From positions 3,269-67,268 of the forward strand of contig CAYYLC010000001.1 in assembly GCA_964472415.1 (NCBI GenBank): a stretch of 64,000 nt of DNA. The letters run 5' to 3'. Shown here piece after piece: positions 6,867-33,286 of the stretch. This DNA is from an uncultured Gammaproteobacteria bacterium (GTDB lineage: Bacteria; Patescibacteriota; Microgenomatia; Levybacterales; GWA1-39-11). Position 1 is the stretch's first letter; every line of letters starts with the position of its first letter. Both the position numbers and the translations under genes were made by a program. The notes under the pieces are model-generated. The model did not search any database, was not told the DNA's origin, and saw nothing but the letters and a program-made list of their open reading frames with translations.

Positions 6867-6899
6867 GCATATTTGTAGTTTTTCGGTATAATAAGCCAT

Positions 6900-8081: not shown

Positions 8082-8083
8082 CT

Positions 8084-15901: not shown

Positions 15902-15947
15902 GATTGCTTATTGTATCACGAAACGATTCTTTGAGGTAGGGAAGGGA

Positions 15948-16502: not shown

Positions 16503-16581
16503 AACTTTCTACACTTCATGATAGCACTTTTTCCAATAATTTCAAGTTAAAATGAAGTTATTGGAATTTGTATAATAGAGT

Positions 16582-17637
16582 ATGAAGAAAACAATTTTTC
16601 TTATAATTGCGCTTATTTCATTTAGCACTTTTTTATATTTGAGAAATTCTGATACGGAAATTATTCCTCCCCTTCCAAAAGATTCCCAAAAGGATTACGA
16701 AATTCAAGATTATGAACGGTTTGTCTTTGTTCCGTACTGGACGGTTTCCGAAAAACTGGATATAGAAGAATACGATAGTATTATTTATTTTGGGGTAACT
16801 TTTGACGAGAATGGGCTTAAGACCTCAGAAGATGGATATAAAATGTTAAGCACATTTTTGGGTGGAGTCTCGGAAGAAAAGAAAATATATCTTACCGTAA
16901 GAATGTTATCTGATGAATTGAATAAGAAAATTCTTAGTGATGGAGATTTACAAAATAAAGTAGGTAGTGCGATTGCACGAGTAGCTCAAGAACATGGATT
17001 TGATGGAGTAGTAGTAGATTATGAGACGTCAGCATTAGGGTTTATGTCTATTGAAGAGAAGATTACTAATATGTATGAAGTTTTGCAAGGACATGTGAAA
17101 GGAGAAGGGTTAGAGTTCTTTGTGACGGTATTTGGGGATACATTTTATCGCGGACGGCCATATGATATTTCCAAAGTTGCAAATCTTTCTGATGGAGTAA
17201 TTATTATGGCGTATGACTTTCATAAAGCTAGATTTAATCCTGGTCCAAACTTCCCGTTATCTGGGAAAGAAATCTATGGATATGATTTAAAGTCTATGAT
17301 AGAGGATTTCAGAAAAGACATGGAGCAGGAAAAAATTATTGTGACGCTGGGATATTTTGGATATGATTGGGCGCTTGATGAAAATGGAGTGAATATGGGA
17401 ATTGCAAAATCTTTGAGTACGAATCAAGGCATTTCTCGGTATATGAATAATTGTCTGCTTGATGATTGCGAGATAGAAAAGAATTTAGATAATGAAATCT
17501 CAGTGCAGTATAAGGATGAAGAAAGAGTTCAGCACGAAGTTTGGTTTGAGACAGAGGAGTCTGTGAATAAAAAAATAGAATTCTTACACGAATTGGGGAT
17601 TAATCGCATAGCTTTTTGGGCATATTCATATTTTTAG
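16582..17637 (+). CDS. glycoside hydrolase family 18-like protein
   Basis: N-terminal TM or signal sequence and the GH18 catalytic motif FDGVVVDYE (DxxDxDxE). TATAAT at 16571-16576 lies 5 nt before the ATG. Confidence 0.5.
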   Translation: MKKTIFLIIALISFSTFLYLRNSDTEIIPPLPKDSQKDYEIQDYERFVFVPYWTVSEKLDIEEYDSIIYFGVTFDENGLKTSEDGYKMLSTFLGGVSEEKKIYLTVRMLSDELNKKILSDGDLQNKVGSAIARVAQEHGFDGVVVDYETSALGFMSIEEKITNMYEVLQGHVKGEGLEFFVTVFGDTFYRGRPYDISKVANLSDGVIIMAYDFHKARFNPGPNFPLSGKEIYGYDLKSMIEDFRKDMEQEKIIVTLGYFGYDWALDENGVNMGIAKSLSTNQGISRYMNNCLLDDCEIEKNLDNEISVQYKDEERVQHEVWFETEESVNKKIEFLHELGINRIAFWAYSYF

Positions 17638-17682
17638 AATGTGGGGCGAAATAATATTCCGCCCCAAAAGTTCCGAGAGAAG

Positions 17683-18921
17683 TTAGGGGTAATTTGCATA
17701 GCAGGCAGCTAATGCCTGTTCTGCAGATCTTCCTAGAGGATTGAAGCTATTGATGAATTCCGCATCGCTTGGTAGGCGAAGGTCGATGAGCCACCAATGA
17801 ATGCCTCGTAGTTTGCCGGAGAACACCGCACACGTCGCTTCATAGAAACGCCGTTGGGTCTCCTCGTCAAATGGTGCGCTCGATTCCCACGCATAGGGAG
17901 TTCTGTGTGCGCCAAGATGGGGGATTATGCCAATCTCAGCAAATACGATTGAATCCAGGCTTCGTCCGCTGTCTGTGATGACTTGGATCCAGGGTTGCCA
18001 TGCAGCAATCAGTCGGTCAACCGTTGTGTAGTCAGGAGCATTCAGTCTGAAATAAGCATCTATGCTCTCAAAATCTAACTCCTTTTTCCAGGGTGTTACA
18101 GAAAGCGGGAAGTTAACCCAGGAAGGGTCCCAGTTTGTTGAATACGTAATCTGTCCGGTATAGACAGATCTGACATTGGTGATGAGCGCGAGCCACTCAT
18201 CGTTGAAGCTCTCCATCGTGCTAAACTCGCTTCCGATGCTAAAGAACTCTGCATTGTGCTCTTCAGCAAATTGTGCGTAGTCGGTAATAAGCGTCTTATA
18301 GCTTTCAAACCAGGCTTGGGGATTTGTCGGCTGTATACTTCCCCGCCAGTTTCCTTCAGGGATAAAAGCCTCTTCGTCCATCAATGGACGAAGCGTTATC
18401 GTGAAGCCACGTTTGTGTGCTTCATCGATAAAATAGGCGATATCTTCTCGCTTGGGTGTATTCTTCGGATGATCATATACCACTGTTGATTGGTATCCAT
18501 CTTGATAAATGGGGAATGCTACGCTGATGTGGTTGATATGAAGATCCATCAGACGTTCAAGATTCGGGATGACCTTTTCTCTGAACTCTGGATCCTGAAA
18601 GTAAAAGACTACGTTTACTCCCGCCTGGAAAGAATATTGTGTTTCCATGGGGTTTTTTACAGACCGTGGAGTTGGGATGGGGGTAGGTATCGTGATTGTT
18701 GATAATTCCTTTCCCCTTGGTGTTTTCGTCGGCTGTTGAGTCGGTGTGAGTGTGGGTGTGGGAATCCTGCGCGGTGGAGAGACGGGTGAAGAATCGGGTA
18801 TAGGAGTTGGATCCTTCACTTCTTGTTCACTCGAATGCTTATTCTGTGCGACAAGTATCCCTGTTCCCATAAGCACAATCAGGAGAAATGCGACTACCTG
18901 TTGAAAGGTGGATTTTGACAC
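17683..18921 (-). CDS. secreted/anchored TIM-barrel glycoside hydrolase (GH5/GH113-like) with a Pro/Thr-rich linker
   Basis: 412 aa with a signal/TM segment, a PTPTLTPTQQPTKTP linker, and a catalytic-domain-like body. G+C is visibly higher than in neighbouring genes (about 58% in one sampled 60-mer). Confidence 0.4.
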   Translation of the reverse strand: MSKSTFQQVVAFLLIVLMGTGILVAQNKHSSEQEVKDPTPIPDSSPVSPPRRIPTPTLTPTQQPTKTPRGKELSTITIPTPIPTPRSVKNPMETQYSFQAGVNVVFYFQDPEFREKVIPNLERLMDLHINHISVAFPIYQDGYQSTVVYDHPKNTPKREDIAYFIDEAHKRGFTITLRPLMDEEAFIPEGNWRGSIQPTNPQAWFESYKTLITDYAQFAEEHNAEFFSIGSEFSTMESFNDEWLALITNVRSVYTGQITYSTNWDPSWVNFPLSVTPWKKELDFESIDAYFRLNAPDYTTVDRLIAAWQPWIQVITDSGRSLDSIVFAEIGIIPHLGAHRTPYAWESSAPFDEETQRRFYEATCAVFSGKLRGIHWWLIDLRLPSDAEFINSFNPLGRSAEQALAACYANYP

Positions 18922-19067: not shown

Positions 19068-22000
19068 TTATTGGATAGCGGTTATGCGGAATATAACTTC
19101 TGTTGCGTCGCCAACAAAATCTTCATTACCGTCAACGGCAATATAAATTTTATCTCCAGCAGATAGTGTGCCGAGATTGAAGATTTCAGGATTTATCGTC
19201 CATGGTAGTCCAAGAGTTGTAAGAGATGCGATCTCCTCTTTGTCATTATTGAATACTCTCAAGGTTGCACTTGTTCCCCACGGAAGAACTCTTCGGATGC
19301 TAAGGTTTGATATTGAATACTCTCCAGTAATCGGCGTGATAAATGCGGATACTACGAGGTGATTATTTGCTGGCGGATGCATCTGAAGATCAAATACTCC
19401 GGATGGCTCTGGTGTGTTTGATTCTTCTCCTCCGCTTCCGCGCGGGGTAGAGCTTTTTCCAATATAGGGATAATTTCCGTTTCCTATCCAAAATGAAGAT
19501 AAATTATTAAATGTCTCGGGGTGATTACCGGATATAAATTGTGAGAATAAACTATCTAAAAGAACGCCATTATCGTCTGTTGATTCATATAATTCTAAGG
19601 TTGTCGATATTGTGTTTGATGAGTCGTTGAGCGTTGCTTGAGCACTATCGCTACTTATTTCGATATCATATGAATTCCAAATAAATTCACCTGTAGGAAT
19701 TATTGTAGGGGCTGGGCTTGGTGTTGGCGTAATGTTATGAGATTCTTTGAGGCTTACTGTCCAGGTAACCTCCGTCGCATCGCCGACAAAGTCTCCATCA
19801 CGATCAACTGCAAAATAAATTCTATCACCCTCTGAGAGTTCACCAAGTTCATATTCTGTAGTATCTATTGTCCAATCTTGTCCTGTTGCTTGGATGGTTG
19901 CTATCTCGTTCTGATCAGTATCAAATACTCGAAGTGTAGTCGTGTTTCCCCAGGAAAGTACTCTCCGTGCTGCGAGATTTGAAATAGAATAGGCGCCATC
20001 TTGAGGAATAATAAATGATGCGGTGATAAGCTTGTCGCTTTCTGGGGGTGACATCTGTAGATCATAAACTCCTTCTGGTGCAGGGGTGTCTATCTCACTT
20101 GATTCAGACCCTCGTGCAGTTGTACTTTTCCCAATATATGGATATTCTCCGAAGTCTCCTGGATCTCTTGACCAGAAGGTTGAGACATTGTTAAACGTTT
20201 CAGGATGAGTAGCGTCATTCCATGCTGAGAGTAGCTCACCGCGCTCTACTCCATCATCGTTGGCTGACTCATACAATTCTAGAATTACAGGATTTGATTC
20301 ATTTTCATCAAATAATATTGCAGTAGCTGATTCAGAGCTTGTCTCAGTGTCATATGAATTCCAGGAGGTAAGGATAGATTCGTTTCCATTGACAGTAAGC
20401 GTAATGCTTTGAGCTGCAGTGTCATTTTCATTCGATGCAGTAAGCGTATATTCAGTTGTTTCTGTTGGGGAGATGGTTGCTGTTCCACTGGCTTCAATAG
20501 AGCCTAAGTGTGTTATGGTTACCTCTGATGCGTTTGAAGTTTCCCAAGATATGGTCGCGTTATCTCCAGAATTTATCTCAGATGGATCTAGAGTGAAAGT
20601 ATGAATTATCGGTGAACTGGTAATAAGAGATGCAGAGATTGTGGCATTAGTTAGTGTAGAAATCTCTTGGTTTTGTAGTCCGCCATTTGACCAGCTATCA
20701 AATATATAGGTTGCGCCATTGATTATTTGTGGTGAAGGAACAAAAAGAGAACTCGTTCCACCAGCTGTTATTGCAGCAGTATCAGGCGTTGTGTGAGTTA
20801 TGCCATTAAGGACTACGGTTGCTCCTTCAGGAGCGCTTTGAAGGTTCAAATTTACCTTCTTTGATCCAATAATTCTGTTTGTTGTTGTTTCTAAGCCGCT
20901 ACTGTCTCTTGTAGTAACGAATAGCTCTAAATCTGTTCCTTCCCCATGATCAGGCGCAGTAAAACTTCCTGAAGAACCTGTGCCTGAAAGGAATGGGTGG
21001 GTGTGACAAGTGTTTGATATCAATTCACAGTGATTGAGAATAAGATTCCAGGAAATGTTATCTTCGCTGATGACTCCATCCTCTGTATCTATTGCTTGTG
21101 CAGTAAAATTTATGGTTTCTCCTACGATATATTCATACCCTTCTATAGGAGTATTGATAGTGACCTCTGGGGGAGTATTTCCTGGATACACCGTGAGCTC
21201 TTGAGTTGTAGAATTTCCTTTCAGGTCTGATACGGTTAATGAAACTTCATATGTGCCACCAATAAGATATGTGTGATTCGGATTTTCACTTTGTGAGGTA
21301 TTACTATCTCCAAAATCCCATTCATAGAATAACATTTCACCAGATGGACTATAAGTACCTTCGCTTGAGAACTGTATAAATAATGGAACTGGTCCTGACT
21401 GAGGTGTTGCTGTCATATTCACAATCGGAGCACTCGAAGATGTCCCATATGTAATTCTTCTCAATTGCCCAGTGTATATTGAGACATAATAGATGTCTCC
21501 ATTTGGACCAGAAAATATTTGTACGGGGCCATCTGGTTGCTCTGAAAACACCTCGACGCTTCCTTCGATAAGCTTATTTTCTTCATCAACATCCATTGCC
21601 CATATGACGCTTTGGCTATAATCTCCAAAGTAATATTTGTTGTGATATTGTTCAGGATATGATGTCCCCGCGTAGAAGGTGCCGCCCACAATAGAAGATC
21701 CTGGTGGATGAGGATATACGTGAATTGGCGGAATTACTGTGTTGGATGCTTCTAAGTCTTGGCATAATTCATAGGCGGAATATCCGAGGACGAACTCGTT
21801 TCCTTCAAAGCATGGCCATCCATAATTATTCCCAGGTGTTACTACGTTAATCTCTTCCCAGGTTCCCCATCCTACATCCCCAGCAAAAATAGTATTCTCT
21901 CCCGGCTTAACACTAAATCGGAATGGATTTCTAAAACCATATGCCCATACTTTAGAACGATTATCATTTGGATTGCCAGTATAGAATGGATTGTTCGGCA

Positions 22001-24026
22001 AGCCTGTTCCATCGGTATTGATTCTCAATATCTTTCCCGATAATATATCGAGATTCTGTGCTCTGAGTGCTTGAGTGTTTACATTCGTATCTGGTGCGCC
22101 ATCTCCTACAGATACGAGGAGTGAGCCATCTGCCATAAATGCCATTCCGCCAATAGTGTGGGTTCTTGCATCAGATGGTATGCAGTCAGTGTCTGGATAA
22201 TTGTCGCAAGAAGGATTTTCTACGGTGCCATTATTGGTTCCCAGGATAATTTCCATAGTGTTAAGATCTGCAGTAGTTCCTTCTACTGTGAGTCGTATAA
22301 CTCGTGCTGATTTGACGCCTTCAAAATCAGTTGGATTAATGTCATAAGAGTATGCAGCATAGAGGTGTCCATTTTGCGCAAAGTTGGGATCAAGTGCAAT
22401 GGAGAGAAGGCCTCTATCTTGGTATGTATTTACGTTTGGGATTACTACCAGAGGATCAGGAAGGAGTGTGCCATTTTCTACAACGCGTATAGTTCCATCT
22501 TTTTCAGCGACAAATATTTTTCCATCTGGAGCGATTGCGGCATATGTGGGAAGATTAAATCCAGTCGCAAGTACTTCAGTTTGGAAACTTTGGGATGCAT
22601 TTTGAATATAAGCATCGTTCAGCGTTACGTCGTCGAAATACATTGTGTGGTTATTTGTTGGTGTAGAGAAATAAGAACCCCATGTCATAACATGGATATC
22701 GTCGCGTCCAGCAAGCCCTGTATTAATCTCTGTAAAGTGTACGATCTTTTCACCATCGAGCCAAACTTCGATCTGTCCGTGTTCTTCATCAACAGTTACC
22801 CGTGATTGAATTTCATGCCAAGAACCATCTCGCGGAATTGCTGGACCGAAAGGACCAGGGAAATGCGTTTCTCCATCAGAGCTAAAATAGACTGGACTTA
22901 ATCGATAGTCTGATCCGATAGTAAGCCAGAGGATATTTCTAAAATCGTCAGTTTTATAGACGATTGCGTTGTGTACTGATCCGGGGTCGAGGTTGTAATC
23001 TTCCGGAAGACTGATGTGCGTTTTTTGATAAATGGTGCTTCGTTTATCAAAAAATTGATCAATAACTGCTGTAGGTTCTGAGCCGCCAGTACTTATTTCG
23101 AGAGCGTAATTTCCTGTTCTGACGTGATTGCTATTCACCTCCAAAGTGTTTCCTTGACGTACGTCAATATTTGGTTGAGGATAGGCAGAAGTGTCACCCT
23201 CTTCAAATCCATTTGAAAAAATAGGCATTGTTGAATTGATGGTAGTAAAGTTTGCTGTATAATTATTCTCTGATCCTATGGTGATAAATTGTTCTTGGTT
23301 TCCTCCATTTGACCAGTCTGAAAAAATAACAGTCCTTCCATCTGGTGTTGTTTGGGGTGAGGGTACGTATAAAGAGTGCATTTCGCCCGATGAAGTATGA
23401 AGTGTGTATGGAACTGTTTGAGTGACTCCGTCAACGACAATCTGTAATCCTGGTTCAGATGTGTTGATTGTAATATCACGTGGTGCCTCTTCTATTACAA
23501 CGCTCACAGAGCCTACCCACCACCGGTCAAAATATTCTACTATTACTTCGTGGCTCCCTGAATTGAGCGTAATATTTTCTGTATAGGTAGTTGCGAGTTG
23601 CACCTGCCACCCATCGATGATTTGATTTCCATCTACAAAGACTTTGATTCCGTCATCAGCTCGGACAGTGAAACGATATATGCCTTCAGAGACATTTATA
23701 ATTCCTCTCCACCGTGCGCTAAACTCATCAGAATTTACCACAGGATCTGGTGATCCTTGTTCCCAGTCATAATCAATTGAGGCTTCCTCTCGTGTAAGGA
23801 CCGGGTCACCGCTGAGAGTCATGTTGTTGAAATATTCTGCGTTCCACTGTACAGAAATTGGCTCAGCTTTAGCAGAAGGGAGGATATAGAGTGCCGAAAG
23901 TGCGGTAATACCAACCGCCGCGAACATTGCATTTCGAAGTTTTCTACGTTTCGTTATCTGCTTTATTGCGTAGTTAATTTTCGATTTAAAACTTATAATT
24001 TTTTTGGATAATTTCCTTATATTCAA
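19068..24026 (-). CDS. giant cell-surface protein (1652 aa): PA14, SGL/glucose-sorbosone-dehydrogenase-like beta-propeller, PKD, two tandem ~180-aa C-terminal repeat domains
   Basis: N-terminal TM or signal sequence. PA14-like segment (YFNNMTLSGDP...FTVRADDGIKVFVDGNQII). Propeller-like segment (GFNLPTYAAIAPDGKIFVAEKDGTIRVV). PKD signature (WDFGDSNTSQ...HTY...GTYEVSLTVSD). The two C-terminal repeats share ELYES..DD.GV...HPETFNN.S.FW...YPYIGKS...RG...LQM.PP...RVL.WG....LRVF......GDATEV. Confidence 0.7.
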   Translation of the reverse strand: MNIRKLSKKIISFKSKINYAIKQITKRRKLRNAMFAAVGITALSALYILPSAKAEPISVQWNAEYFNNMTLSGDPVLTREEASIDYDWEQGSPDPVVNSDEFSARWRGIINVSEGIYRFTVRADDGIKVFVDGNQIIDGWQVQLATTYTENITLNSGSHEVIVEYFDRWWVGSVSVVIEEAPRDITINTSEPGLQIVVDGVTQTVPYTLHTSSGEMHSLYVPSPQTTPDGRTVIFSDWSNGGNQEQFITIGSENNYTANFTTINSTMPIFSNGFEEGDTSAYPQPNIDVRQGNTLEVNSNHVRTGNYALEISTGGSEPTAVIDQFFDKRSTIYQKTHISLPEDYNLDPGSVHNAIVYKTDDFRNILWLTIGSDYRLSPVYFSSDGETHFPGPFGPAIPRDGSWHEIQSRVTVDEEHGQIEVWLDGEKIVHFTEINTGLAGRDDIHVMTWGSYFSTPTNNHTMYFDDVTLNDAYIQNASQSFQTEVLATGFNLPTYAAIAPDGKIFVAEKDGTIRVVENGTLLPDPLVVIPNVNTYQDRGLLSIALDPNFAQNGHLYAAYSYDINPTDFEGVKSARVIRLTVEGTTADLNTMEIILGTNNGTVENPSCDNYPDTDCIPSDARTHTIGGMAFMADGSLLVSVGDGAPDTNVNTQALRAQNLDILSGKILRINTDGTGLPNNPFYTGNPNDNRSKVWAYGFRNPFRFSVKPGENTIFAGDVGWGTWEEINVVTPGNNYGWPCFEGNEFVLGYSAYELCQDLEASNTVIPPIHVYPHPPGSSIVGGTFYAGTSYPEQYHNKYYFGDYSQSVIWAMDVDEENKLIEGSVEVFSEQPDGPVQIFSGPNGDIYYVSIYTGQLRRITYGTSSSAPIVNMTATPQSGPVPLFIQFSSEGTYSPSGEMLFYEWDFGDSNTSQSENPNHTYLIGGTYEVSLTVSDLKGNSTTQELTVYPGNTPPEVTINTPIEGYEYIVGETINFTAQAIDTEDGVISEDNISWNLILNHCELISNTCHTHPFLSGTGSSGSFTAPDHGEGTDLELFVTTRDSSGLETTTNRIIGSKKVNLNLQSAPEGATVVLNGITHTTPDTAAITAGGTSSLFVPSPQIINGATYIFDSWSNGGLQNQEISTLTNATISASLITSSPIIHTFTLDPSEINSGDNATISWETSNASEVTITHLGSIEASGTATISPTETTEYTLTASNENDTAAQSITLTVNGNESILTSWNSYDTETSSESATAILFDENESNPVILELYESANDDGVERGELLSAWNDATHPETFNNVSTFWSRDPGDFGEYPYIGKSTTARGSESSEIDTPAPEGVYDLQMSPPESDKLITASFIIPQDGAYSISNLAARRVLSWGNTTTLRVFDTDQNEIATIQATGQDWTIDTTEYELGELSEGDRIYFAVDRDGDFVGDATEVTWTVSLKESHNITPTPSPAPTIIPTGEFIWNSYDIEISSDSAQATLNDSSNTISTTLELYESTDDNGVLLDSLFSQFISGNHPETFNNLSSFWIGNGNYPYIGKSSTPRGSGGEESNTPEPSGVFDLQMHPPANNHLVVSAFITPITGEYSISNLSIRRVLPWGTSATLRVFNNDKEEIASLTTLGLPWTINPEIFNLGTLSAGDKIYIAVDGNEDFVGDATEVIFRITAIQ

Positions 24027-24130: not shown

Positions 24131-24159
24131 AAAAAAGGCGGAGATTATTAGTCTCCGCC
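24131..24159 (-). terminator. intrinsic terminator after the GT2 gene (minus strand)
   Basis: Plus-strand aaaaaaGGCGGAGAttattagTCTCCGCC. On the minus strand this is an 8-bp stem followed by UUUUUU. Confidence 0.5.
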
Positions 24160-24180
24160 TTAGGATAAGTCCTGAAAGAA

Positions 24181-25641
24181 TCATCCGAGAGAAGTTCGTT
24201 CTTGAACCTCTGTCGCTAAATCTTCCGTTTCTGTGCGAATAACTTTTGGTGTTAGTTCCCACATATGAGGACGTGTTATGAGCTGATATTTTTCTCTCCA
24301 AGCAGCGATTGCTTGGAGGATCCAATACAGCCATATCGTGCATAGGACGGTTCGAACATGCCCATCACTTTTTCCTTTGATGCATCCTGCATATGTGAGG
24401 AGAATCATCAGGAAATTGCCTGATACCATAGACAGGAGTCCAAGGTAAAAAAGCGTTTCTGGATACATTTGTTCGATAAAGTCCGGCTCTGATATAAGAT
24501 ACACAACTGTTAACGCCCAAAAAATGGGGTTAAGGAAGGGGATGAGCGGTGTTGATCCTATAAGGACATGAAAGGCTAGGAAGTTTTTAAATCCGAGTCT
24601 TTGATATGTCTTTAAGGGATTTCTCATGTACTTGAGCCATGTTTGGTCAAAACCTTTGAACCAGCGAGTTCTTTGTCTGATCCATGGAGCGATTTCTGAT
24701 GGTGCTTCTTCCCATGTTGCAGAGTTGACGCTCGCGATTTCGTAGTCGTCCATTGTGAACCGAACACCGAATTCACAGTCTTCTGTACTGTTGAATACGT
24801 CAAGACCTCCGCTTTGTCTTAAGACATTCGTTTTGATATAGACTGAATTTCCGGGAAAGAGGGGAAGTAGTCTATGTTTTGCAAGTGTCTGGACAACGAC
24901 TTTATGGTGAAAGTTGTACTCAGAAGCATGATGTTTCGTGAGCCAATTTTCGTCGTCATTTGAAACCAGTGTTTTTGCTTGAATGGCAGCAACGTTCGTC
25001 CCTGCTTTCTGAAGAAAGGCCATGTGTATTTTTTTGATTTGATCCGGTTCAGGTCGAGATTCGGAATCCATGATTACCGTTATCTCTCCTCTTGCCTTTT
25101 CAAGCCCAAACATAAGTGCACGAGGCTTATTCTTAGGGTAATGTTCGCCGAATGTAACGAGTTGATAGAACGATGGGAGCTGTATCGATGAGATCATCGA
25201 GAGCATTTCCATATCTTCTTCACGTACTAGTAGGATAACTTGTAGTTTTTCCTTTGGCCAGTCGAGTTTTGTGATACTTTCGAGTTGACCAGGGAATGCT
25301 ACGGTTTCCCGATAGTGAGGTGCAAGGATGGTTACTGTTGGGAGATTTTCGTTTTTGAGTTCTCCAATTTGCTCTGCGGTGACATTGATTTCCTTCGAAT
25401 CGATAGTGTGGCTGAGCATCAACAGCGCTTTTGAAATCGGATTTGCGAGGCCGATTATAGTTGCGCATGCAGTAAATACGACGAATACTGTCTGAGTGTG
25501 GCCTGTAGAAATCAGAATGCCAATTCCTAACAGTATGCCAATAAAGACACCAATTTGAGAATGGGTGAATGTTTTTTCTGAAGTCTCTATTTCTGCAAGA
25601 GGTTCTGCTGTTACAATCCGAACCTTAGGTTTCTTTTTCAA
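24181..25641 (-). CDS. processive family-2 glycosyltransferase (cellulose/chitin-synthase-like), membrane-integrated
   Basis: N-terminal TM helices, the D, D, D motifs (DSESRPEPD) and QRTRW (QxxRW), and C-terminal TM helices. Confidence 0.75.
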   Translation of the reverse strand: MKKKPKVRIVTAEPLAEIETSEKTFTHSQIGVFIGILLGIGILISTGHTQTVFVVFTACATIIGLANPISKALLMLSHTIDSKEINVTAEQIGELKNENLPTVTILAPHYRETVAFPGQLESITKLDWPKEKLQVILLVREEDMEMLSMISSIQLPSFYQLVTFGEHYPKNKPRALMFGLEKARGEITVIMDSESRPEPDQIKKIHMAFLQKAGTNVAAIQAKTLVSNDDENWLTKHHASEYNFHHKVVVQTLAKHRLLPLFPGNSVYIKTNVLRQSGGLDVFNSTEDCEFGVRFTMDDYEIASVNSATWEEAPSEIAPWIRQRTRWFKGFDQTWLKYMRNPLKTYQRLGFKNFLAFHVLIGSTPLIPFLNPIFWALTVVYLISEPDFIEQMYPETLFYLGLLSMVSGNFLMILLTYAGCIKGKSDGHVRTVLCTIWLYWILQAIAAWREKYQLITRPHMWELTPKVIRTETEDLATEVQERTSLG

Positions 25642-25653
25642 GTTGCCCTCCTT

Positions 25654-27447
25654 TTATGTCGGATTGATTGGATGTGTTTCGCTTATTGCTGGCAGATCGG
25701 TCCCTTTGATCTTATAAATCTCATATCCATATCCTTGTGCAACAAGGTCATAGTGTTCGACTAGTGTAGGAGATCCTCTGAGAGTTCTCCATATTTCATC
25801 TTGTCTGCGACCGTCGGGATGACCTCTCATGATAATCCAGTCGACATGTGCGCTTATTGGATTTGTGAGAGCCTGATTCCAGAAATCTTGCTCTACCCCC
25901 TCGTACGTAATCTTGTTAAGCGGCACGGGGGACTTGTAGAATATTGGCTCGTTTCCGAAGCGGTTCATGACAACAATTCCCCTGTCGTAGTGTTCGTCAA
26001 GGAAACTGGTAATTTCTGCATGAATCCGAGCGTCGTCATTCGTCTTGTTCTGGAGCGCTTCTCCAGCAGAGAGTATCCCTCCTTGCCAGGTGATGCCTGT
26101 TGAAAGTATCACGAGAACAAAAACGGGGAATTGGATAAATCGTACTTTGTGGACGAGATATCCAACACCAAGTGCTGCTGCGGGAGTCATAAGTACTCCA
26201 TAACGTGTTCCCCAATTTGATCCTTCAATAACGTCTGGATGCCAGAGGGCACTCCATCCGAAATAAAGAGACGCAATGAAGAATACGAATGGATATAGTA
26301 GGCAGAGGGTAAGAAGTTTTTCTGCCACGTTCTGTTTGGAGAAGAATAGGAGAGTTACCCCTACTATCCCAAGCGATGCTGTGATCCATCCTACAGTATC
26401 GAATGCCGATCGAGCATAGAGTTCGATAGACAAAGGAAGATTGTGGATGGAACGATTTGACTCATTCATGCCAGCAAGAGCCGCTCGTGCAATTGATCCA
26501 GAAGAAAATTCACTGTTCATAAAAAATAGCGGATCTCCTAGATATTGCAGATTGAGGATTAGCCAGGCAAGGATTGGCCCGCCTACGATTGTGGCAAAGA
26601 CGAAGAGGTGATCTTCTGTCTTTTTGTATGAGATCTTCCTCTGCCAATGGGTAATCGCTATGACGCTGAGAAACGGTATAAATCCGACCCAGCCTTCATA
26701 GCGGGTCATGCATGCTGCTGCGAGTGTTGCTGCTGCAAGACACAGAGGCTTAAGTTTACCCAAATCCTCTTGCAGCATCCATTGCCTTGTGAAGTATGTA
26801 GTCATTACGATGAACGTAGTGAATGGAACTTCTGACATTGGGGTTGATTGCAAGAAAAGCATGTCTGCTGTCGAGAATGCGACAAAACCACCGATGAACG
26901 ATGCAAGTTTGTCGTTAGTAAATGACAGAACGAGTTTGTACATGTAGGCGGCTCCTACCACAAAGCTTGTCATAATGACAAGCGATCCGGAAAGACCTGT
27001 TTCGTAGAGAGGGTCAATTATAGATAATAGGACCATCACTGCTTGAGGTAATGGTGGCCATACTCCTATAAGTTGCTCAATGCCTGGATTGACCGAGTTT
27101 GTTGCAAGACGTGACATAGTAAGCCGTGCTATGGCATCACCATATGCAAGAATCATGTCTTCCTGATAGAAATACACAAAGCTTGCTGCTGATGTAATTC
27201 CTGCCAGGAGTATAACGACATGAAGAACCTTGTCTCCTGTCCATTTGAATTCTATCTGTATGTTTATGAAGCCTTTGAATCTGTTGGGCTGAGAATTGCG
27301 CTTTTCTATTCGAGCAGCACTATTGGCTTGCATAAGGCTAAAGATGATGTACATGGTTTTAAAAGGAATGAAGCCTATTCGGATCAAATTCCAGATAATC
27401 CATGTATGACCTTTGGTTTCCAGTAAGGCTGATGGTATAGGTGTCAC
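25654..27447 (-). CDS. GT-C fold glycosyltransferase (ArnT/PMT-like polyprenyl-phosphate-sugar-dependent transferase); true start probably internal
   Basis: About 12 predicted TM helices. First-loop motif YQEDMILAYGDAIARL resembles the DE/acidic-loop region of the GT-C ArnT/PMT families. There is also a large C-terminal soluble domain. Confidence 0.45.
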   Translation of the reverse strand: MTPIPSALLETKGHTWIIWNLIRIGFIPFKTMYIIFSLMQANSAARIEKRNSQPNRFKGFINIQIEFKWTGDKVLHVVILLAGITSAASFVYFYQEDMILAYGDAIARLTMSRLATNSVNPGIEQLIGVWPPLPQAVMVLLSIIDPLYETGLSGSLVIMTSFVVGAAYMYKLVLSFTNDKLASFIGGFVAFSTADMLFLQSTPMSEVPFTTFIVMTTYFTRQWMLQEDLGKLKPLCLAAATLAAACMTRYEGWVGFIPFLSVIAITHWQRKISYKKTEDHLFVFATIVGGPILAWLILNLQYLGDPLFFMNSEFSSGSIARAALAGMNESNRSIHNLPLSIELYARSAFDTVGWITASLGIVGVTLLFFSKQNVAEKLLTLCLLYPFVFFIASLYFGWSALWHPDVIEGSNWGTRYGVLMTPAAALGVGYLVHKVRFIQFPVFVLVILSTGITWQGGILSAGEALQNKTNDDARIHAEITSFLDEHYDRGIVVMNRFGNEPIFYKSPVPLNKITYEGVEQDFWNQALTNPISAHVDWIIMRGHPDGRRQDEIWRTLRGSPTLVEHYDLVAQGYGYEIYKIKGTDLPAISETHPINPT

Positions 27448-27459
27448 TATCTGTGCCTC

Positions 27460-28338
27460 CTAATTTTTTGCAAGAAGAGTAGTTGAGAGTGTAAAGAATG
27501 CAGTGAATCCTATGAGGATGAATCTCATTTGGATGTCTGCAAAAATTACCCGTTGAGGATGTACATCTTCAATTTGTGTACTGATCAGATGCCAATATCG
27601 CCATATTCCTGGAAGTACAAGTACTCCAGAAAAAACGAAAAGTGGCGCGATGGAAATTGAAGCAGGTACATATATAAGAATAACAAGCACAAGGCCTACA
27701 GAGAACATTTGTGTAAGTCTTTTGTTCGAGTAGAACGAAAGAGTTCGGCGAGTCGTGGAAGAATTGCCGAGCGCCTGGACTTCACATTTTCGCTTGCCAA
27801 GTTCGACAATAAATGCGATAAGGCCAGCAAGAAGTACCCACAGTTCCCATCCTGGTGGATAATACGATACTGCAAGAAAGCCACCGAATGTCCGTATGCT
27901 AAATAGTACTCCCACAATGACTACATCAACCAGCGAGTGATGTTTCAGTTGGAAGGTGTAGATATGTGAAAGAATAAGATAGCCGGCAAGTAAGATGCCT
28001 GCTTGTATACTAATCACAAATCCTATCTCAAGAGAGAAGATTGTGAAGAGGATAGCCGCAATAATTGCAGCCCTTACTGATAGACGCCCTGATGCGATAG
28101 CACGGTAGCGTTTTCTAGGATGGAGTCTGTCTCGTTGACGATCCATCGTGTCATTTATAAGGTACGCGCTGCTTGCTGCTATGCAAAATCCTGCACAGAA
28201 GAATGCAAGCACAGCGACTTCATTGAGCATTCCTTCATGGAGAAGAAATGGAGCTGGTATGAGAGTGAAGACGTTTTTTGCCCACTGTTTTATTCGTATA
28301 GTAGACAAAACCTCTTGGATTGATTTTTTCGCATTCAC
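27460..28338 (-). CDS. UbiA-family prenyltransferase, decaprenyl-phosphate phosphoribosyltransferase-like
   Basis: Motifs IKQWAKNVF and NDTMDRQRDRLHPRKRYRAIASG (NDxxDxxxD...RxRPIASG), plus multiple TM helices. Confidence 0.6.
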   Translation of the reverse strand: MNAKKSIQEVLSTIRIKQWAKNVFTLIPAPFLLHEGMLNEVAVLAFFCAGFCIAASSAYLINDTMDRQRDRLHPRKRYRAIASGRLSVRAAIIAAILFTIFSLEIGFVISIQAGILLAGYLILSHIYTFQLKHHSLVDVVIVGVLFSIRTFGGFLAVSYYPPGWELWVLLAGLIAFIVELGKRKCEVQALGNSSTTRRTLSFYSNKRLTQMFSVGLVLVILIYVPASISIAPLFVFSGVLVLPGIWRYWHLISTQIEDVHPQRVIFADIQMRFILIGFTAFFTLSTTLLAKN

Positions 28339-28931
28339 GTTAACCTCTCCTCAGTAGGTTCGATAGGTTTTGAGTGAGATTGTATTTCCTGTCCGAGTGT
28401 GATCCGTCGAATGATACGAGTAATTATTCCAAAGGAGATAAGTTCTGCTCCAAAGAAATTGGCGATGAGTCCTATTCCGCTGAATATAAACCACGAAATT
28501 TCCGGTGAGATATGATAGAAAAAATCAAAGGAACTAATCCCAGCGATTTTTAATGGAACGGTTGGCGTGAAGACGCAGAATATGATGAAAAGTGGTATGA
28601 ACCACAATGCATTATGTTTTCGCGTTAGGCTGATGAATTCATGGCGCCAGGTAAATTTTCTATTTGCGACAAAATTGAATAATGCCGACAAAAGAACAGA
28701 TATACTGATTGCGACAAATACTTCTACTTCGATAGAGAGAAGAAGTATGAATAGTGTGCCTTGCAGAATGTTCGTTACTCCGCCAATTGGAATGAAATCC
28801 GATAGTTTGAGTGTAAGATTCGGCCATCTTCTCCAGATTTTTTCCTGGAGAAGAATAATGAATTGAGCTATTCTCCTACCAGGTGTAGGGAGAAATAAGG
28901 TAAGGATTCTTGTTGTTAAATTGCTTGGCAA
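28335..28931 (-). CDS. GtrA-like polysaccharide-synthesis membrane protein (start uncertain, probably downstream non-ATG)
   Basis: Four TM helices and the GtrA signature FVANRKFTW. Confidence 0.45.
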   Translation of the reverse strand: MPSNLTTRILTLFLPTPGRRIAQFIILLQEKIWRRWPNLTLKLSDFIPIGGVTNILQGTLFILLLSIEVEVFVAISISVLLSALFNFVANRKFTWRHEFISLTRKHNALWFIPLFIIFCVFTPTVPLKIAGISSFDFFYHISPEISWFIFSGIGLIANFFGAELISFGIITRIIRRITLGQEIQSHSKPIEPTEERLT

Positions 28932-29134
28932 TGTCCTTTTCCTTAGTTGTGTGGTTGTTAAAGAGCTGTTTAGATTGGTGGATAGCCTGGAGTTGTAGAT
29001 TATTGCAGCTAGTGCTAGTCTACGCTAAACCTAGAGCTATTCTCCAATGGCACAATTTTAGGTTAGGATATGTGGTAAGTCAACAGAGTTGTATAGCATG
29101 AGTAGGTGGGAGGGCATAAAGCCCTCCCTGTTGA

Positions 29135-30274
29135 TTAAAAAATTACCTTGAGGAGGCTGATGATTCCTTGTTTCCAAGGAACACGGTGACTTACACCGGA
29201 TTGAGCTGAGAGCCTGTTTCGGCTCTTCAGATACCAGTGGTAGTTTCGAAGGAGCGCGTCTTGATTTGAAAATTGAGGATTGAATCCTAGACTTTTCTCT
29301 GCCTTCTCAATCGAGACAAAGCTGTCTTTGCCGGCTGTCTCATATACCCATTTATAAATGGGTGAGATTTTAAGTTTTTCCAATACGCGAAGCGCCCAGA
29401 TTCCTGGCATTTCAGGAAATGAGACCATTCGCTTTCCAAATCCAGCTTCGTCAAGCACTACTTGGTAATCCTTTCTCATGGTGGTGTAGTTTTTTGCACC
29501 AATATTAAATGTGTCGTTAACTGTTTCTATGGAAAGAGTCATTGTCAGGTGGATTGCTTGACAAAGATCTTCGACATCCAGAAGCTGATAACGATTCTTG
29601 CCATTTCCCAACATTGGGAAATGATGTCCAGTGTTTGCCCAATCATATAGCAGGGCAAAAATCCCTAACCGTTCGGGCCCAATGAATGACTTGGGGCGAA
29701 TGATAGACACGCACATGCCGTTTCTTCGATAATCTTCACAGATTTTTTCTGCTTTGATTTTTGCTTTGCCATACGGGCCGACACCAATAAGTTGATCAGT
29801 TTCAATGAGTGGATGGTGGTCAGGGATTCCGTAGACTGCGGTCGACGAGATGTGAATTACTCGCTCGACGTTGTTGAGATGAGCTGCTGCTAAGACATTC
29901 TGAGTTCCTTGAACATCGGTAGTATAGATGTCTCGTTTGGAATAGAGTGGCAAGGCAGCGGCTGCATGGATGACTATATCGACTCCTTCCATAGCTTCAT
30001 TGAGTAGTTTTTGATTGCGGATGTCTCCACGAATTATCTTTATTTGCTTTGACTCAGGGTAGCTGAATGGTTCTTTATCGAAAGAACAGACGGCATATCC
30101 TCGCTTCAGAAGATAGCGTGTGAGGTTAATTCCAAGAAATCCTGCACCTCCTGTGATGAGTACCGCCTGAGTTTGTTGCGGTATATTGTTATCCTGTTGA
30201 GGTTGTGCTTCACGTTCTATAGTGAGAGATGGCGCAGCCTTCTGAGGCTTGAGCTTGATGGTTGGTGTTGTCAC
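29135..30274 (-). CDS. extended-SDR NAD-dependent epimerase/dehydratase (nucleotide- or lipid-linked sugar epimerase)
   Basis: Rossmann motif ITGGAGFLG, catalytic YGKAK (YxxxK), and a roughly 35-aa low-complexity N-terminal extension. Confidence 0.75.
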   Translation of the reverse strand: MTTPTIKLKPQKAAPSLTIEREAQPQQDNNIPQQTQAVLITGGAGFLGINLTRYLLKRGYAVCSFDKEPFSYPESKQIKIIRGDIRNQKLLNEAMEGVDIVIHAAAALPLYSKRDIYTTDVQGTQNVLAAAHLNNVERVIHISSTAVYGIPDHHPLIETDQLIGVGPYGKAKIKAEKICEDYRRNGMCVSIIRPKSFIGPERLGIFALLYDWANTGHHFPMLGNGKNRYQLLDVEDLCQAIHLTMTLSIETVNDTFNIGAKNYTTMRKDYQVVLDEAGFGKRMVSFPEMPGIWALRVLEKLKISPIYKWVYETAGKDSFVSIEKAEKSLGFNPQFSNQDALLRNYHWYLKSRNRLSAQSGVSHRVPWKQGIISLLKVIF

Positions 30275-30401: not shown

Positions 30402-31622
30402 TTATGGTAATTTCGGAAATAATGGGATATGGAAGTTAGTGTTTGGAGAAGTTTTTCTATCAATACTGAGAAGAGTTGTTGCAAAATTAATCTGTTTTTT
30501 ATCATAGAGTGCGTAGATGCGCCTTGCTTTATTTTTTTGGATTGGGCTTTCAGGGAAAAGTAAGCCTTGATAAGAATTATCTTCAGAAAAATCAGAAATA
30601 GTGACACCTGTTGCGCGATAAAGTGTGTTGGAATGATATATCTTTTTAAATCCCGCACGGAGCTCTTTGCGAATAAGGATGGGGAAAGATGTTTTCTGGG
30701 GAATTTTTAGTTCAATTTCATGGTAGGTAAATTTCTGCGTTTTTAAATAGAGGAAAATTTTCCCTACAGAATAATTAAATTTTCTTGCCTTCAGAAATGA
30801 GCTTTCAACATGCGTAAGGATTCGCGCCCAGAGAATACTTTTATTAGTGATTGCAGGAGTAATTGTTTGAGATTTGGTAATAGACTTATAATTTGCTTTA
30901 GGTTGAGGGTCTACGGAGAAAAGTAATATGCCGTTTAATTCTTGCCAGATTTCATAAAATGGTTTTGGGAATGCTGACTTAATAAATCCTTCCGGGCGAA
31001 TGGTGAAGTCGTACGCAGTTTTTATGTTGAGTGCGCGAAGCTTTGGAGCGCTTCGGTAGCCGATTCCCCAAACTTTCTCAATACCAGTTTGCTTGAGAAG
31101 ATCTTTTGCTTGGTCTTTTGGAGCGATAGTAAGTCCAGATGGCTTATTAAGGTTTGCTGCAATTTTTGCAAGAGATTTTGTAATAGAGATGCCTATCGAG
31201 ACAGTGATGCCAAGCGAATTCTCAATCTCATTTTTCAGAGCTTTTCCGATTTGTTCATAAGACATATTAAATGGTTTTTCAAGTCCGCGTAGATCCATAA
31301 ATCCTTCATCTATAGAATATATCTCTACGCTTGGTGAATATTTTTTCATGACAGAAAACATGTTGTCTGAGAATAAATGGTACAGTCTGTAGTCAGAGGC
31401 TGTAATAATTACCTGAGGGAATTGTTTTTTAATCTCCCAGCAAGGCATGCCACGAATGACTCCCAGTTTTTTTGCTTCATATGATACAGCTGTTGCGATT
31501 CCTCGCTCAAGACCGGAGACGATTGGTTTCCCCTGGAGCTCTGGTCGGATTGCCTGAGTTACTGATGCAAAAAATGCATCAGCATCCAAGTGTAATATTG
31601 CGTTAGGCCATGAAGTGGACAT
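30402..31622 (-). CDS. dinB: DNA polymerase IV (Y-family translesion polymerase)
   Basis: N-terminal HLDADAFFASV and SIDEGFMDL catalytic motifs, with palm, fingers and little-finger organisation. Confidence 0.85.
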   Translation of the reverse strand: MSTSWPNAILHLDADAFFASVTQAIRPELQGKPIVSGLERGIATAVSYEAKKLGVIRGMPCWEIKKQFPQVIITASDYRLYHLFSDNMFSVMKKYSPSVEIYSIDEGFMDLRGLEKPFNMSYEQIGKALKNEIENSLGITVSIGISITKSLAKIAANLNKPSGLTIAPKDQAKDLLKQTGIEKVWGIGYRSAPKLRALNIKTAYDFTIRPEGFIKSAFPKPFYEIWQELNGILLFSVDPQPKANYKSITKSQTITPAITNKSILWARILTHVESSFLKARKFNYSVGKIFLYLKTQKFTYHEIELKIPQKTSFPILIRKELRAGFKKIYHSNTLYRATGVTISDFSEDNSYQGLLFPESPIQKNKARRIYALYDKKQINFATTLLSIDRKTSPNTNFHIPLFPKLP

Positions 31623-31682
31623 AATACATTCTGAAGAACTGTTTAAATAATTGTAAAATTTTTTTAGATTGGGATTTCATAA

Positions 31683-32243
31683 TTAGTACTTTCGCATGAC
31701 ACTTTTTACAATGCCAAATACTCTAAGCTCCGTAACGGGAATAAATTCAGGATAATTTGGATTTGCAGCTCTGAGAATGCTGATGCCATTCTTCTTATCG
31801 AGGAGTTTGAGAGTCCATTCATTATCAATAAGTGCCAGCACAATATCTCCAGAGCGGGCGTTGGTCGTTTTTTCTATTACTATGAGATCTCCTTCAAAAA
31901 TCCCCACACCCTCCATAGAATCTCCAGATACTTTTAGGAGAAACGAGCTTGTGGGTTTGTCTATGAGATACTCATCAAGAGAGAGGAAATTTAATTCCTC
32001 TTCAGCACCAGTTGGAAATCCTGCTTTAATATTTCCGAGAATCGGTACCTGAAAGAAAAAATTCGTGGGAGAGAGTTTATTGTTTACTTTCTGGAGATAG
32101 TTTTCTTCAATCAAGCCTTTAATAATTTTATGAATCGCGTTTTTAGAAGAGAGTTCAAAAAGTACAAGCATTTCAGAATATGAGGGTATGCGTTTATTTT
32201 TTTTATAAAATTGTCTAATTTGTTCGAGATATTTCGTATTCAT
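31683..32243 (-). CDS. lexA: LexA repressor (S24 peptidase)
   Basis: N-terminal wHTH and a C-terminal S24 domain with Ser (GDSM) and Lys. It lies upstream of dinB on the same strand, as in an SOS operon. Confidence 0.8.
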   Translation of the reverse strand: MNTKYLEQIRQFYKKNKRIPSYSEMLVLFELSSKNAIHKIIKGLIEENYLQKVNNKLSPTNFFFQVPILGNIKAGFPTGAEEELNFLSLDEYLIDKPTSSFLLKVSGDSMEGVGIFEGDLIVIEKTTNARSGDIVLALIDNEWTLKLLDKKNGISILRAANPNYPEFIPVTELRVFGIVKSVMRKY

Positions 32244-32311: not shown

Positions 32312-33286
32312 TTATTGACTGGAAAAATATTCGTAGACTTTCTCAGAAATTTTTGCCTCAATTTCTGCGGCAGTTGTTTGGTTGTTTGTTTGAGAGAGTA
32401 GTACTAATACATAGTCTCCATACGGTGAATAGATAATTCCTGCATCATGTTTTATCGTTCCCAATTCTCCAGTTTTATGTGCGATCTCTATATTTTTAGG
32501 AAGGTATTTCGGAATCCTGTCATTAAGCTGCTGACGCTTTAGGATCATAAGCATTTCTCTCGAAGCGTTTTTGCTAACAATTTCACCTTTATATAGGAGT
32601 TCATAATATTTAAGGACGTCATTTGCTGTACTGGTGACAGAGTCAATTGATGAGTTATCTAAACTGTATTTACTTAAAAATTCTCCAACCTTATTCCAGC
32701 CAATCGTAAGATAGAGAATATGTGCAGAATAGTTATCAGATACAGTTATCATGCGATCGAGTGCGCCTTCTACTGTATTGCCTATGAATCCTTCGGTAAT
32801 TTCTGCTGATTCTGTTGCGATACCTAATCGTTTATTGATAATATCTGCTTCAAATCCTATATTCTGTTGTAGAGTGAGATTTCCTTTTTCGATTTCTTCA
32901 AATATCGCTCCCATGACCCAGAGCTTGTAAAGGCTCGCGGTTTCAAAAATTTCATGCTCATTATAAAAATAGGACTCATTAGTCTTTAGATTTTTTATTG
33001 AGATGGCATATTTTCCCTCAGCATTCTGAAGCTCTTCTTGAATGATTTCTTCCAGTTCTGATGATTCAGATCCACTCTCGACAGTCTCTTCGATCAGATC
33101 GCCAAGTGGTTTCAGAATGGTATTTGATTCTGAACGGTTAAAAAATAGAGACACAGGGAAGCTGATGAGTAGCAAGAGAAAAAAAAGTTTTATGAGAATA
33201 TGCGCTTGAGAGCGGAAAAGTTTTTGGTAGAAAAATACGAGGAAAAAGACTCCTAAGATAAGAAGTAAAAGATATAAAAATTCCAT
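32312..33286 (-). CDS. class A beta-lactamase-like serine hydrolase (membrane-anchored)
   Basis: N-terminal TM helix, S-x-x-K motif (ASLYK), SDN (VSDNYS), and KTG (HKTGE). Confidence 0.65.
   Translation of the reverse strand: MEFLYLLLLILGVFFLVFFYQKLFRSQAHILIKLFFLLLLISFPVSLFFNRSESNTILKPLGDLIEETVESGSESSELEEIIQEELQNAEGKYAISIKNLKTNESYFYNEHEIFETASLYKLWVMGAIFEEIEKGNLTLQQNIGFEADIINKRLGIATESAEITEGFIGNTVEGALDRMITVSDNYSAHILYLTIGWNKVGEFLSKYSLDNSSIDSVTSTANDVLKYYELLYKGEIVSKNASREMLMILKRQQLNDRIPKYLPKNIEIAHKTGELGTIKHDAGIIYSPYGDYVLVLLSQTNNQTTAAEIEAKISEKVYEYFSSQ

Follow-up and report, generated by a model that had tools for sequence, protein, structure and literature searches.

A candidate lipid-linked pentofuranose pathway joined to a GT2-GT-C glycan module in a bacterium of the candidate phyla radiation

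The cell envelopes of bacteria of the candidate phyla radiation (CPR) are almost unknown, and their host-attached lifestyle makes it likely that surface glycans matter. What kind of lipid-linked sugar might such a bacterium make, and to what would it be transferred? The question is raised by five adjoining genes in a 64,000-nucleotide stretch of contig CAYYLC010000001.1 (positions 3,269 to 67,268, forward strand), referred to here in its full length as the window. A first-pass annotation had described the genome as CPR-like, a reasonable description (the best named matches of its RecA are from Parcubacteria, 79%, and Levybacteria, 72%), and had interpreted the genes as a polyprenyl-phosphate pentose donor pathway feeding a GT-C fold glycosyltransferase and resembling the mycobacterial decaprenyl-phosphoryl-arabinose (DPA) arabinan module. 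The donor logic stood up to our analysis; the identity with the mycobacterial module did not. The reading which we favour, with moderate confidence, is that of a CPR variant of three-component pentofuranosylation, joined to a conserved polysaccharide machine that includes a family 2 glycosyltransferase (GT2), a GT-C enzyme and a glycoside hydrolase of family 113 (GH113).

The five consecutive minus-strand genes were recovered as open reading frames (ORFs) with exactly the coordinates first assigned to them. They are listed here together with the nearby GH113 gene:

24181-25641, minus strand: membrane-embedded, cellulose-synthase-like GT2 of 486 aa, predicted to make and export the acceptor polymer
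25654-27447, minus strand: GT-C fold glycosyltransferase of 597 aa (559 aa, with a start at 27333, in the NCBI call), predicted extracytoplasmic transferase using a lipid-linked donor
27460-28338, minus strand: putative UbiA-family polyprenyl-phosphate 5-phosphoribosyltransferase (PPPRS) of the Rv3806c type, 292 aa
28335-28931, minus strand: GtrA-family small membrane protein of 198 aa, candidate flippase for a lipid-linked pentose
29135-30274, minus strand: extended short-chain dehydrogenase/reductase (SDR) of 379 aa, candidate epimerase acting on polyprenyl-phosphate-ribofuranose
17683-18921, minus strand: GH113 glycoside hydrolase of 412 aa, probable accessory hydrolase of the GT2/GT-C machine

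The GtrA and UbiA genes overlap by 4 bp, and the UbiA/GT-C and GT-C/GT2 gaps are of 12 bp each. All five families proposed earlier hold, from Pfam and NCBIfam matches and, for the GT-C protein, from a structural model. The family or fold of each protein, the linkage of the genes and the gene fusions described below are direct observations.

Judging from its sequence, the UbiA homolog (Pfam PF01040, 2e-30) is a PPPRS-type protein of a divergent clade. It carries the motif YLINDTMDRQRDRLHPRKRYRAIASG (NDTMDRQRD...RYRAIASG) to which the first-pass annotation had drawn attention. The NCBIfam decaprenyl-phosphate phosphoribosyltransferase families NF008978, NF008977 and NF008976 score 142, 130 and 106 bits respectively, the HAD-UbiA fusion family NF006088 (138 bits) is the fourth of the four best matches, and the next, unrelated families are a PRK12884 prenyltransferase (64 bits), haem O synthase (58 bits) and UbiA (41 bits). 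Among 177,635 distinct PDB sequences searched at E<=0.01, only 8j8j and its variant 8j8k were matched; both are chains of Rv3806c (best E 5e-23), with which the protein shares 27.5% identity. In a neighbour-joining tree the protein and its clade (from contigs L002, L003 and L008) fall inside the PPPRS group alongside Rv3806c, and E. coli UbiA, MenA and CyoE are split off in 100 of 100 bootstraps. On the NCBIfam ranking, the PDB matches and the tree, we rejected a quinone or haem prenyltransferase, the grouping that the first-pass annotation had named as refuting its own reading. Members of the clade are 27-32% identical to other PPPRS proteins; beyond the clade's own small circle the nearest relative is that of L008 (43%, the best in the contig scan), followed by others at about 35%.

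The residues by which Rv3806c holds Mg2+, PRPP (phosphoribosyl pyrophosphate) and the lipid phosphate are thirteen in number (PMC10994848). Mapped by alignment, ten of these are identical in the window protein, whose numbering is given in brackets: R22 (R15), K28 (K21), Y70 (Y59), N73 (N62), D77 (D66), K87 (K76), R90 (R79), Y138 (Y127), K143 (K132) and K191 (K182). Two are replaced conservatively, Y157 by F146 and K208 by R198; the thirteenth, Q135, is considered below.

The extended SDR (Pfam Epimerase, 2e-42; motifs TGGAGFLG and YGKAK) belongs to a subfamily that is highly conserved in alignment and has more than 560 relatives in a metagenome scan, the top 80 at 60-69% identity. When the neighbours in the loci of these 80 were clustered, PPPRS proved the most recurrent, immediately adjoining the SDR gene in 12-13 of the 80 loci, with every other neighbour family present in at most 6. 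PPPRS genes also lie near SDR homologs in L034, L040 and L050; the linkage extends over several phyla, and the arrangements include PPPRS-HAD-GtrA-SDR-large membrane protein (L166; HAD, haloacid dehalogenase-type phosphatase), a HAD-PPPRS fusion followed by an SDR and membrane proteins (L112) and, in an Omnitrophota contig (L040), PPPRS-SDR-TM/TPR protein-PAP2. In a published candidate pentofuranose locus of Rhizobium sp. CCGE531 (PMC11127046), an SDR adjoining an SMR transporter is 34% identical to that of the window over its full length (E 1e-67), including a C-terminal HR-P-KQ motif. The link between SDR and PPPRS thus appears to be strong guilt by association, short of proof.

The GtrA-family protein (PF04138, 3e-8; 34.3 bits against a cutoff of 26.1) has about four hydrophobic segments, and GtrA genes adjoin PPPRS in L166 and on the Lactococcus plasmid pF27D. 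The locus on this plasmid (L177, Lactococcus cremoris, 6467-9586) is an exopolysaccharide locus of a dairy bacterium in which a 462-aa hypothetical protein is followed by PPPRS, a HAD-IB phosphatase and GtrA; it has the appearance of a monoderm pentofuranose system.

The 597-aa protein was the least recognizable by sequence profile, with just a weak PMT_2 match (1.5e-4), under the Pfam cutoff. An AlphaFold (AF2) model built with ten homologs as alignment reached a pLDDT of 81.8 and a pTM of 0.83, and when it was compared with the PDB using Foldseek, all 15 matches at E<=0.001 were GT-C enzymes: STT3 (1e-7), DPY19, ArnT, Pmt4, ALG9/12, AftB (7e-4) and PglB are found among them. ArnT is the best balanced match (TM-scores 0.55/0.56), and Emb proteins appear from 3e-3. 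An invariant Asp (motif AYGDA) lies just past the first transmembrane helix in the family alignment, the usual location of the catalytic Asp in other GT-C enzymes, and by analogy with these would occupy the catalytic place (PMC11127046). Sequence comparison brought out no likeness to Aft or Emb proteins, and BLAST none to the GT-C protein of the Rhizobium candidate locus or to the large membrane proteins next to PPPRS and SDR in L112 and L166. The model therefore identifies a GT-C enzyme without specific tie to the Aft/Emb arabinosyltransferases. It had been called ArnT/PMT-like and compared with AftA; its nearest structures are indeed ArnT, STT3 and DPY19, ahead of Aft and Emb proteins.

The GT2 protein, earlier described as processive (QRTRW), matches Glyco_trans_2_3 (PF13632, 1.7e-24) as well as PF13641, with weak NCBIfam matches to CelA and PgaC, and carries DSE192, TED286 and QRTRW323. 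Transmembrane segments at 30-69 and 366-415 correspond to two N-terminal and at least two C-terminal helices. Its best PDB sequence matches are PcManGT (9e-5) and BcsA (1.6e-4), the BcsA alignment spanning residues 172-401. By its GT-A domain, motifs and flanking helices, it is consistent with a processive, BcsA-like membrane synthase.

The cluster is also found elsewhere. The full five-gene order is kept in L002-L005, the order DinB-SDR-GtrA-UbiA-GT-C in three of these related contigs (L002-L004), and UbiA-GT-C-GT2 in L008 at 43%, 38% and 31% identity. Between the window and L002-L004 the donor genes (SDR, GtrA, UbiA) are 63-70% identical, whereas the GT-C and GT2 genes (24181-27447 in the window; for example 3424-6577 in L002) are just 33-38% identical to their relatives. 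The glycan-specific enzymes thus appear to evolve much faster than the donor genes, which fits a diversification of acceptor-specific enzymes.

GT2 and GT-C homologs are paired both in L008 and in L168-L172. In L168 a 2000-aa protein precedes the pair and three GH113 paralogs directly follow it, an arrangement paralleled in the window, where GH113 (PF22612, 3.4e-41) and a 1652-aa protein (19068-24026) stand beside GT2 and GT-C; the two large proteins are not homologous. A profile search of 1.84 billion representatives returned 1177 members of the GT-C family at E<=1e-30, and the 148 best include at least 12 single chains in which a GT2 of the window type is fused N-terminal to the GT-C. The fused GT2 domains are 31-35% identical to that of the window and retain TED and QRxRW. 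One protein (P0267) unites GT2, GT-C and GH113 in a single polypeptide. GT-C relatives fused to GT2 domains of the DPMS/ArnC/GtrB type also occur (P0216, P0238, P0243); P0243 combines such a domain (PDB 5mlz, 7e-21) with a synthase-type GT2 and a GT-C, and P0298 is likewise a triple fusion, with a DPMS/ArnC-like GT2 besides the synthase-type GT2 and the GT-C. A further family member, P0245, consists of a PF00535 GT2, a GT-C and a GH5 cellulase.

Such fusions point to joint action of the synthase-type GT2, the GT-C and GH113, and P0243 argues that a lipid-phosphate-sugar synthase is an interchangeable third component, a role which in the clade of the window (the window, L002-L005 and L008) would be filled by PPPRS. 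Taken further, GT2 and GT-C, with or without GH113, would form a widespread and often fused polysaccharide machine with a modular donor supply, a DPMS/ArnC-like GT2 elsewhere and PPPRS here, the pentofuranose being produced by one extended SDR. We put forward this wider generalization tentatively, as a minority possibility; under it the SDR would replace the DprE1/DprE2 pair if the product were arabinofuranose. A literature search found no description of a GT2-GT-C-GH113 machine. In a Clostridioides difficile locus where GH113 neighbours a BcsA-like GT2, the linkage was used as an argument for a mannose-type polymer, with GH113 enzymes stated to be exclusively endo-mannanases (PMC7710045). The backbone is possibly mannan-like in the window too, from GH113 and the likeness of the GT2 to PcManGT, both of them weak clues.

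For substrates, sugar, acceptor and order of steps, we infer the following route. A donor module would comprise SDR, GtrA and the UbiA-type enzyme, and a glycan module GT-C, GT2 and probably GH113. The UbiA-type enzyme is predicted to act on the inner side of the membrane, where it would move 5-phosphoribose from PRPP to polyprenyl phosphate; the 5-phosphate would be removed by a phosphatase encoded outside the cluster, and the extended SDR may then epimerise the lipid-linked ribofuranose (Ribf), at C3 to give xylofuranose (Xylf) or at C2 to give arabinofuranose (Araf). GtrA would flip the lipid-linked pentose outward. The cellulose-synthase-like GT2 would polymerise and export a backbone glycan, possibly beta-mannan-like, and the GT-C would transfer the pentofuranose outside the membrane from its lipid donor to the GT2 polymer or another envelope acceptor; GH113 would trim the polymer. 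Xylofuranose, ribofuranose and arabinofuranose are all candidates for the sugar. In Citrobacter youngae a single GalE-like SDR, ORF13, decides between Xylf and Ribf side chains, as established by mutant and complementation NMR, and its action on lipid-linked Ribf is the inference of the authors (PMC11127046). Published precedent for a single GalE-like SDR concerns the Ribf-to-Xylf conversion only (PMC11127046), and by this analogy a lone extended SDR would favour Araf no more than Xylf.

Several observations weigh against this route. No protein of the cluster reaches its NCBIfam equivalog cutoff, and the UbiA homolog stays under the curated ones (142 against 207 bits and 130 against 234 bits). 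The position of Q135, which in Rv3806c contacts the ribose O3 (PMC10994848), is a Ser in the window protein. In about 85% of the loci of the SDR family the available flanks contain no PPPRS, and the role of the SDR could be broader than lipid-linked pentose. The GT2/GT-C pair in L168-L172 (GT-C 28-35% and GT2 35-37% identical to those of the window) has no PPPRS, SDR or GtrA nearby, and the GT-C therefore has no intrinsic need of a pentose donor. A single-sequence AF2 model of the GT2 was unusable (pLDDT 39.7), and a lipid-linked donor might be the product of the GT2 itself, given its likeness to PcManGT, which Gandini and colleagues reportedly described in 2020 as a dolichyl-phosphate-dependent mannosyltransferase. 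Finally, the cluster itself contains no 5-phosphatase gene. The sole HAD protein of the window lies 24 kb away and is just marginally similar to the PPPRS-linked HADs:

54008-54721, plus strand: HAD-IB hydrolase of 237 aa, the only candidate of the window for the 5-phosphatase, weakly linked

This protein (TIGR01490, 104.8 bits against a cutoff of 98.3; PF12710) is of the same HAD class as the phosphatases adjacent to PPPRS in L166 and on pF27D; in view of the marginal pairwise similarity, we have not accepted it as the 5-phosphatase.

Of the competing explanations, the one that survives best is a true DPA route: lipid-linked arabinofuranose would be the product of the SDR, and the GT-C would be an arabinosyltransferase assembling an arabinan of the mycobacterial kind. 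An Rv3806c-family PPPRS, a GtrA-like protein (compare Rv3789) and a GT-C are indeed clustered here, AftB and Emb proteins are among the structural matches of the GT-C (7e-4 to 3e-3), and a lone SDR acting as a C2 epimerase is compatible with the sequence. The rest of the route is missing from the window, whose non-ribosomal ORFs were scanned against Pfam and NCBIfam: there is no DprE1-like oxidase of the FAD/ALO type, no DprE2-type classical SDR, no PAP2 phosphatase like Rv3807c, no Aft/Emb-like sequence and no PRPP synthase, so that the two genes whose presence the first-pass annotation had considered informative, those for a DprE1-like oxidase and a PRPP synthase, are both absent from it. 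Two FAD oxidases at 55253-58579 were examined as DprE1 candidates and rejected, since they possess FAD-oxidase_C and are GlcD/YdiJ-like. The SDR is of the extended GalE type instead of the classical DprE2 type, and the best structural matches of the GT-C are ArnT, STT3 and DPY19. In addition, Araf-containing glycans outside Actinobacteria track with DprE1/DprE2 homologs, and a lone GalE-like SDR tracks with Xylf (PMC11127046). We consider membership in the DPA/arabinan module unlikely.

The two modules might also be adjacent and uncoupled, with the GT2 supplying a lipid-linked hexose such as polyprenyl-phosphate-mannose which the GT-C polymerises outside, and the PPPRS/GtrA/SDR donor serving another GT-C or acceptor. 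The GT2/GT-C pairs and fusions without PPPRS are in agreement with this, as are the membrane mannosyltransferase PcManGT as best PDB sequence match of the GT2, the linkage of the pair to an endo-mannanase family and an SDR that is apparently transcribed separately. Against such independence, the window, L002 and L008 represent three diverged lineages, and all keep the order UbiA-GT-C-GT2 with its 12-bp spacers. The GT2 has TED, QRxRW and transmembrane segments on either side, as is typical of channel-forming synthases. In P0243 and P0298 a DPMS/ArnC-like GT2 stands beside the synthase-type one, which implies that the latter is not what makes the donor. Uncoupled modules seem to us distinctly improbable. 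A conventional polysaccharide cluster, with the SDR as a generic nucleotide-sugar epimerase or dehydratase feeding the GT2 and the UbiA homolog as a prenyltransferase, would fit the best PDB matches of the SDR (dTDP-glucose 4,6-dehydratases and UDP-glucose 4-epimerases) and the majority of SDR-family loci without adjacent PPPRS, and is hardly credible given a UbiA homolog clearly apart from the aromatic and haem prenyltransferases, an SDR that misses all NCBIfam equivalog cutoffs widely (GalE 76 against 262 bits, which rules out a generic UDP-glucose 4-epimerase; RmlB 88 against 365 bits) and the presence of the SDR inside PPPRS-HAD-GtrA modules with PPPRS as its top recurrent neighbour.

Returning to the coupled pentofuranose pathway, the intergenic signals suggest how its genes are expressed:

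30393-30365, minus strand: promoter-like site of the SDR gene, consensus match
29108-29128, no strand assigned: G+C-rich hairpin with an 8 bp stem and no T-run, between the SDR stop and the promoter-like site of GtrA
29083-29055, minus strand: promoter-like site of the GtrA gene, TTGACT-17-TAAAAT, consensus match
24135-24161, minus strand: intrinsic-terminator-like hairpin, 10-bp stem then TTTTTGT, directly 3' of the GT2 stop
24091-24063, minus strand: promoter consensus of the gene for the 1652-aa protein, 12/12 match to -35/-10

By these consensus matches the genes would fall into four transcription units, [SDR], [GtrA-UbiA-GT-C-GT2], [giant protein] and [GH113]; the SDR gene is probably a unit of its own, and the hairpin at 24135-24161 would mark the end of the GtrA-UbiA-GT-C-GT2 unit.

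The base composition of the cluster had been estimated at about 52-55% G+C, a figure that proved too high: the measured value is 43.3%, against 38.9% for the whole window, with 39-45% for the individual genes and 51% in the top 200-bp window of the region. G+C at third codon positions (GC3) is 0.36-0.43 in the five genes against 0.30 +/- 0.04 in the other genes of the window, in which the GH113 gene has the highest G+C (47.5%) and GC3. The elevation is thus real, modest and common to the GH113 gene too. Horizontal acquisition had been suggested; a recent acquisition by this genome alone is unlikely because the DinB-SDR-GtrA-UbiA-GT-C order is shared with related contigs, and an older one is possible given the GC3 shift.

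Among the neighbouring genes, the giant protein noticed earlier is real, with PA14, polysaccharide lyase, GSDH (glucose/sorbosone dehydrogenase) and PKD domains in its 1652 aa. Beside the cluster on this side (14135-18921) is an envelope-related run of genes for an ABC exporter, a LytR_C-domain protein, GH18 and GH113. A DinB-type (IMS) polymerase and a LexA-like S24 peptidase (30402-32243) lie directly upstream of the SDR gene, and a Beta-lactamase2-family protein with an N-terminal hydrophobic segment (32312-33286) is also near it; one of 23% identity likewise lies near the SDR of the distant locus L034 (7510-8484). Elsewhere in the window are an ATP-citrate-lyase-like pair (6900-9865; Citrate_bind with ATP-grasp and Citrate_synt with CoA-ligase), unusual for a CPR genome, a region (55253-61698) where two GlcD/YdiJ-like FAD-linked oxidases in tandem are accompanied by a split transketolase and a glycerate-kinase-like gene (DUF4147 and MOFRL), and a 178-aa ORF without Pfam match (4026-4562) in a locally G+C-richer kilobase (46.9%).

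If the proposed pathway is correct, lipid-linked pentofuranose glycosylation, which in the literature searched has been demonstrated in Actinobacteria and Gram-negatives, would extend to the CPR, a very common uncharacterised SDR subfamily would acquire a function and a GT2-GT-C-GH113 machine would be defined. For research on DprE1, a tuberculosis drug target, it would also be of interest if one enzyme sufficed for lipid-linked Araf or Xylf. None of this would be unexpected in kind, because many such loci, with MATE or SMR/GtrA-type transporters, were predicted in 2024 (PMC11127046).

How does the cluster compare with the systems already described? Of the systems in the literature, it comes nearest to the three-component pentofuranose system reported by Kelly et al. 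(PNAS 2024). In C. youngae O1/O2 (ORF12-15) this was shown experimentally to add alpha-ribofuranose or xylofuranose to the O antigen, and it consists of a PPPRS with a fused HAD phosphatase, a GT-C (GT136) and a MATE-family protein whose role as flippase was assigned from bioinformatics and genetic context, not by direct test (PMC11127046). Both systems combine an Rv3806c-type PPPRS with a GT-C, a small membrane protein proposed as flippase and a GalE-like SDR (TGxxGxxG, YxxxK) in an auxiliary role, a predicted one in the case of the window, and in the window PPPRS, flippase candidate and GT-C are contiguous (GtrA-UbiA-GT-C). They differ in that the cluster of the window is without a fused or adjacent HAD phosphoribose phosphatase, its flippase candidate is of the GtrA family instead of MATE, its partner is a synthase-type GT2 instead of an ABC-transporter O-antigen pathway, and its host is a CPR bacterium. 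When an Enterobacteriaceae PPPRS locus was used as query for relatives of ORF12 and ORF13, no match was obtained in the E. coli collection and one, unannotated, in the phage collection.

The mycobacterial DPA genes (Rv3789-Rv3792, Rv3805c-Rv3808c) share with the window an Rv3806c-homologous PPPRS, a GtrA-family protein (Rv3789), a GT-C gene that adjoins PPPRS and a GT2 gene in the same cluster; in Mycobacterium, aftB, ubiA, Rv3807c and glfT2 are likewise neighbours. Unlike them, the window has no DprE1, DprE2 or PAP2, its SDR is of the extended type, its GT-C is not Aft/Emb-like by sequence and its GT2 is a membrane-embedded synthase in contrast to the peripheral GlfT2 type. With GtrA/GtrB/GtrC and CsbB/GtcA/YfhO it shares the logic of a lipid-phosphate-sugar synthase, a GtrA-family flippase and a GT-C, whereas its candidate donor synthase is a UbiA-family enzyme predicted to depend on PRPP and theirs is a GT2 that depends on nucleotide sugars. 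Finally, BcsA/BcsZ and the GT2-GH113 locus of C. difficile resemble it in combining a membrane GT2 that carries D, DxD, TED and QxxRW with a linked clan GH-A hydrolase, here GH113 (PMC7710045). In place of the BcsB, PilZ and c-di-GMP module of BcsA/BcsZ-type systems, the conserved partner of the GT2 in the window and its relatives is a GT-C, sometimes fused to the GT2 itself.

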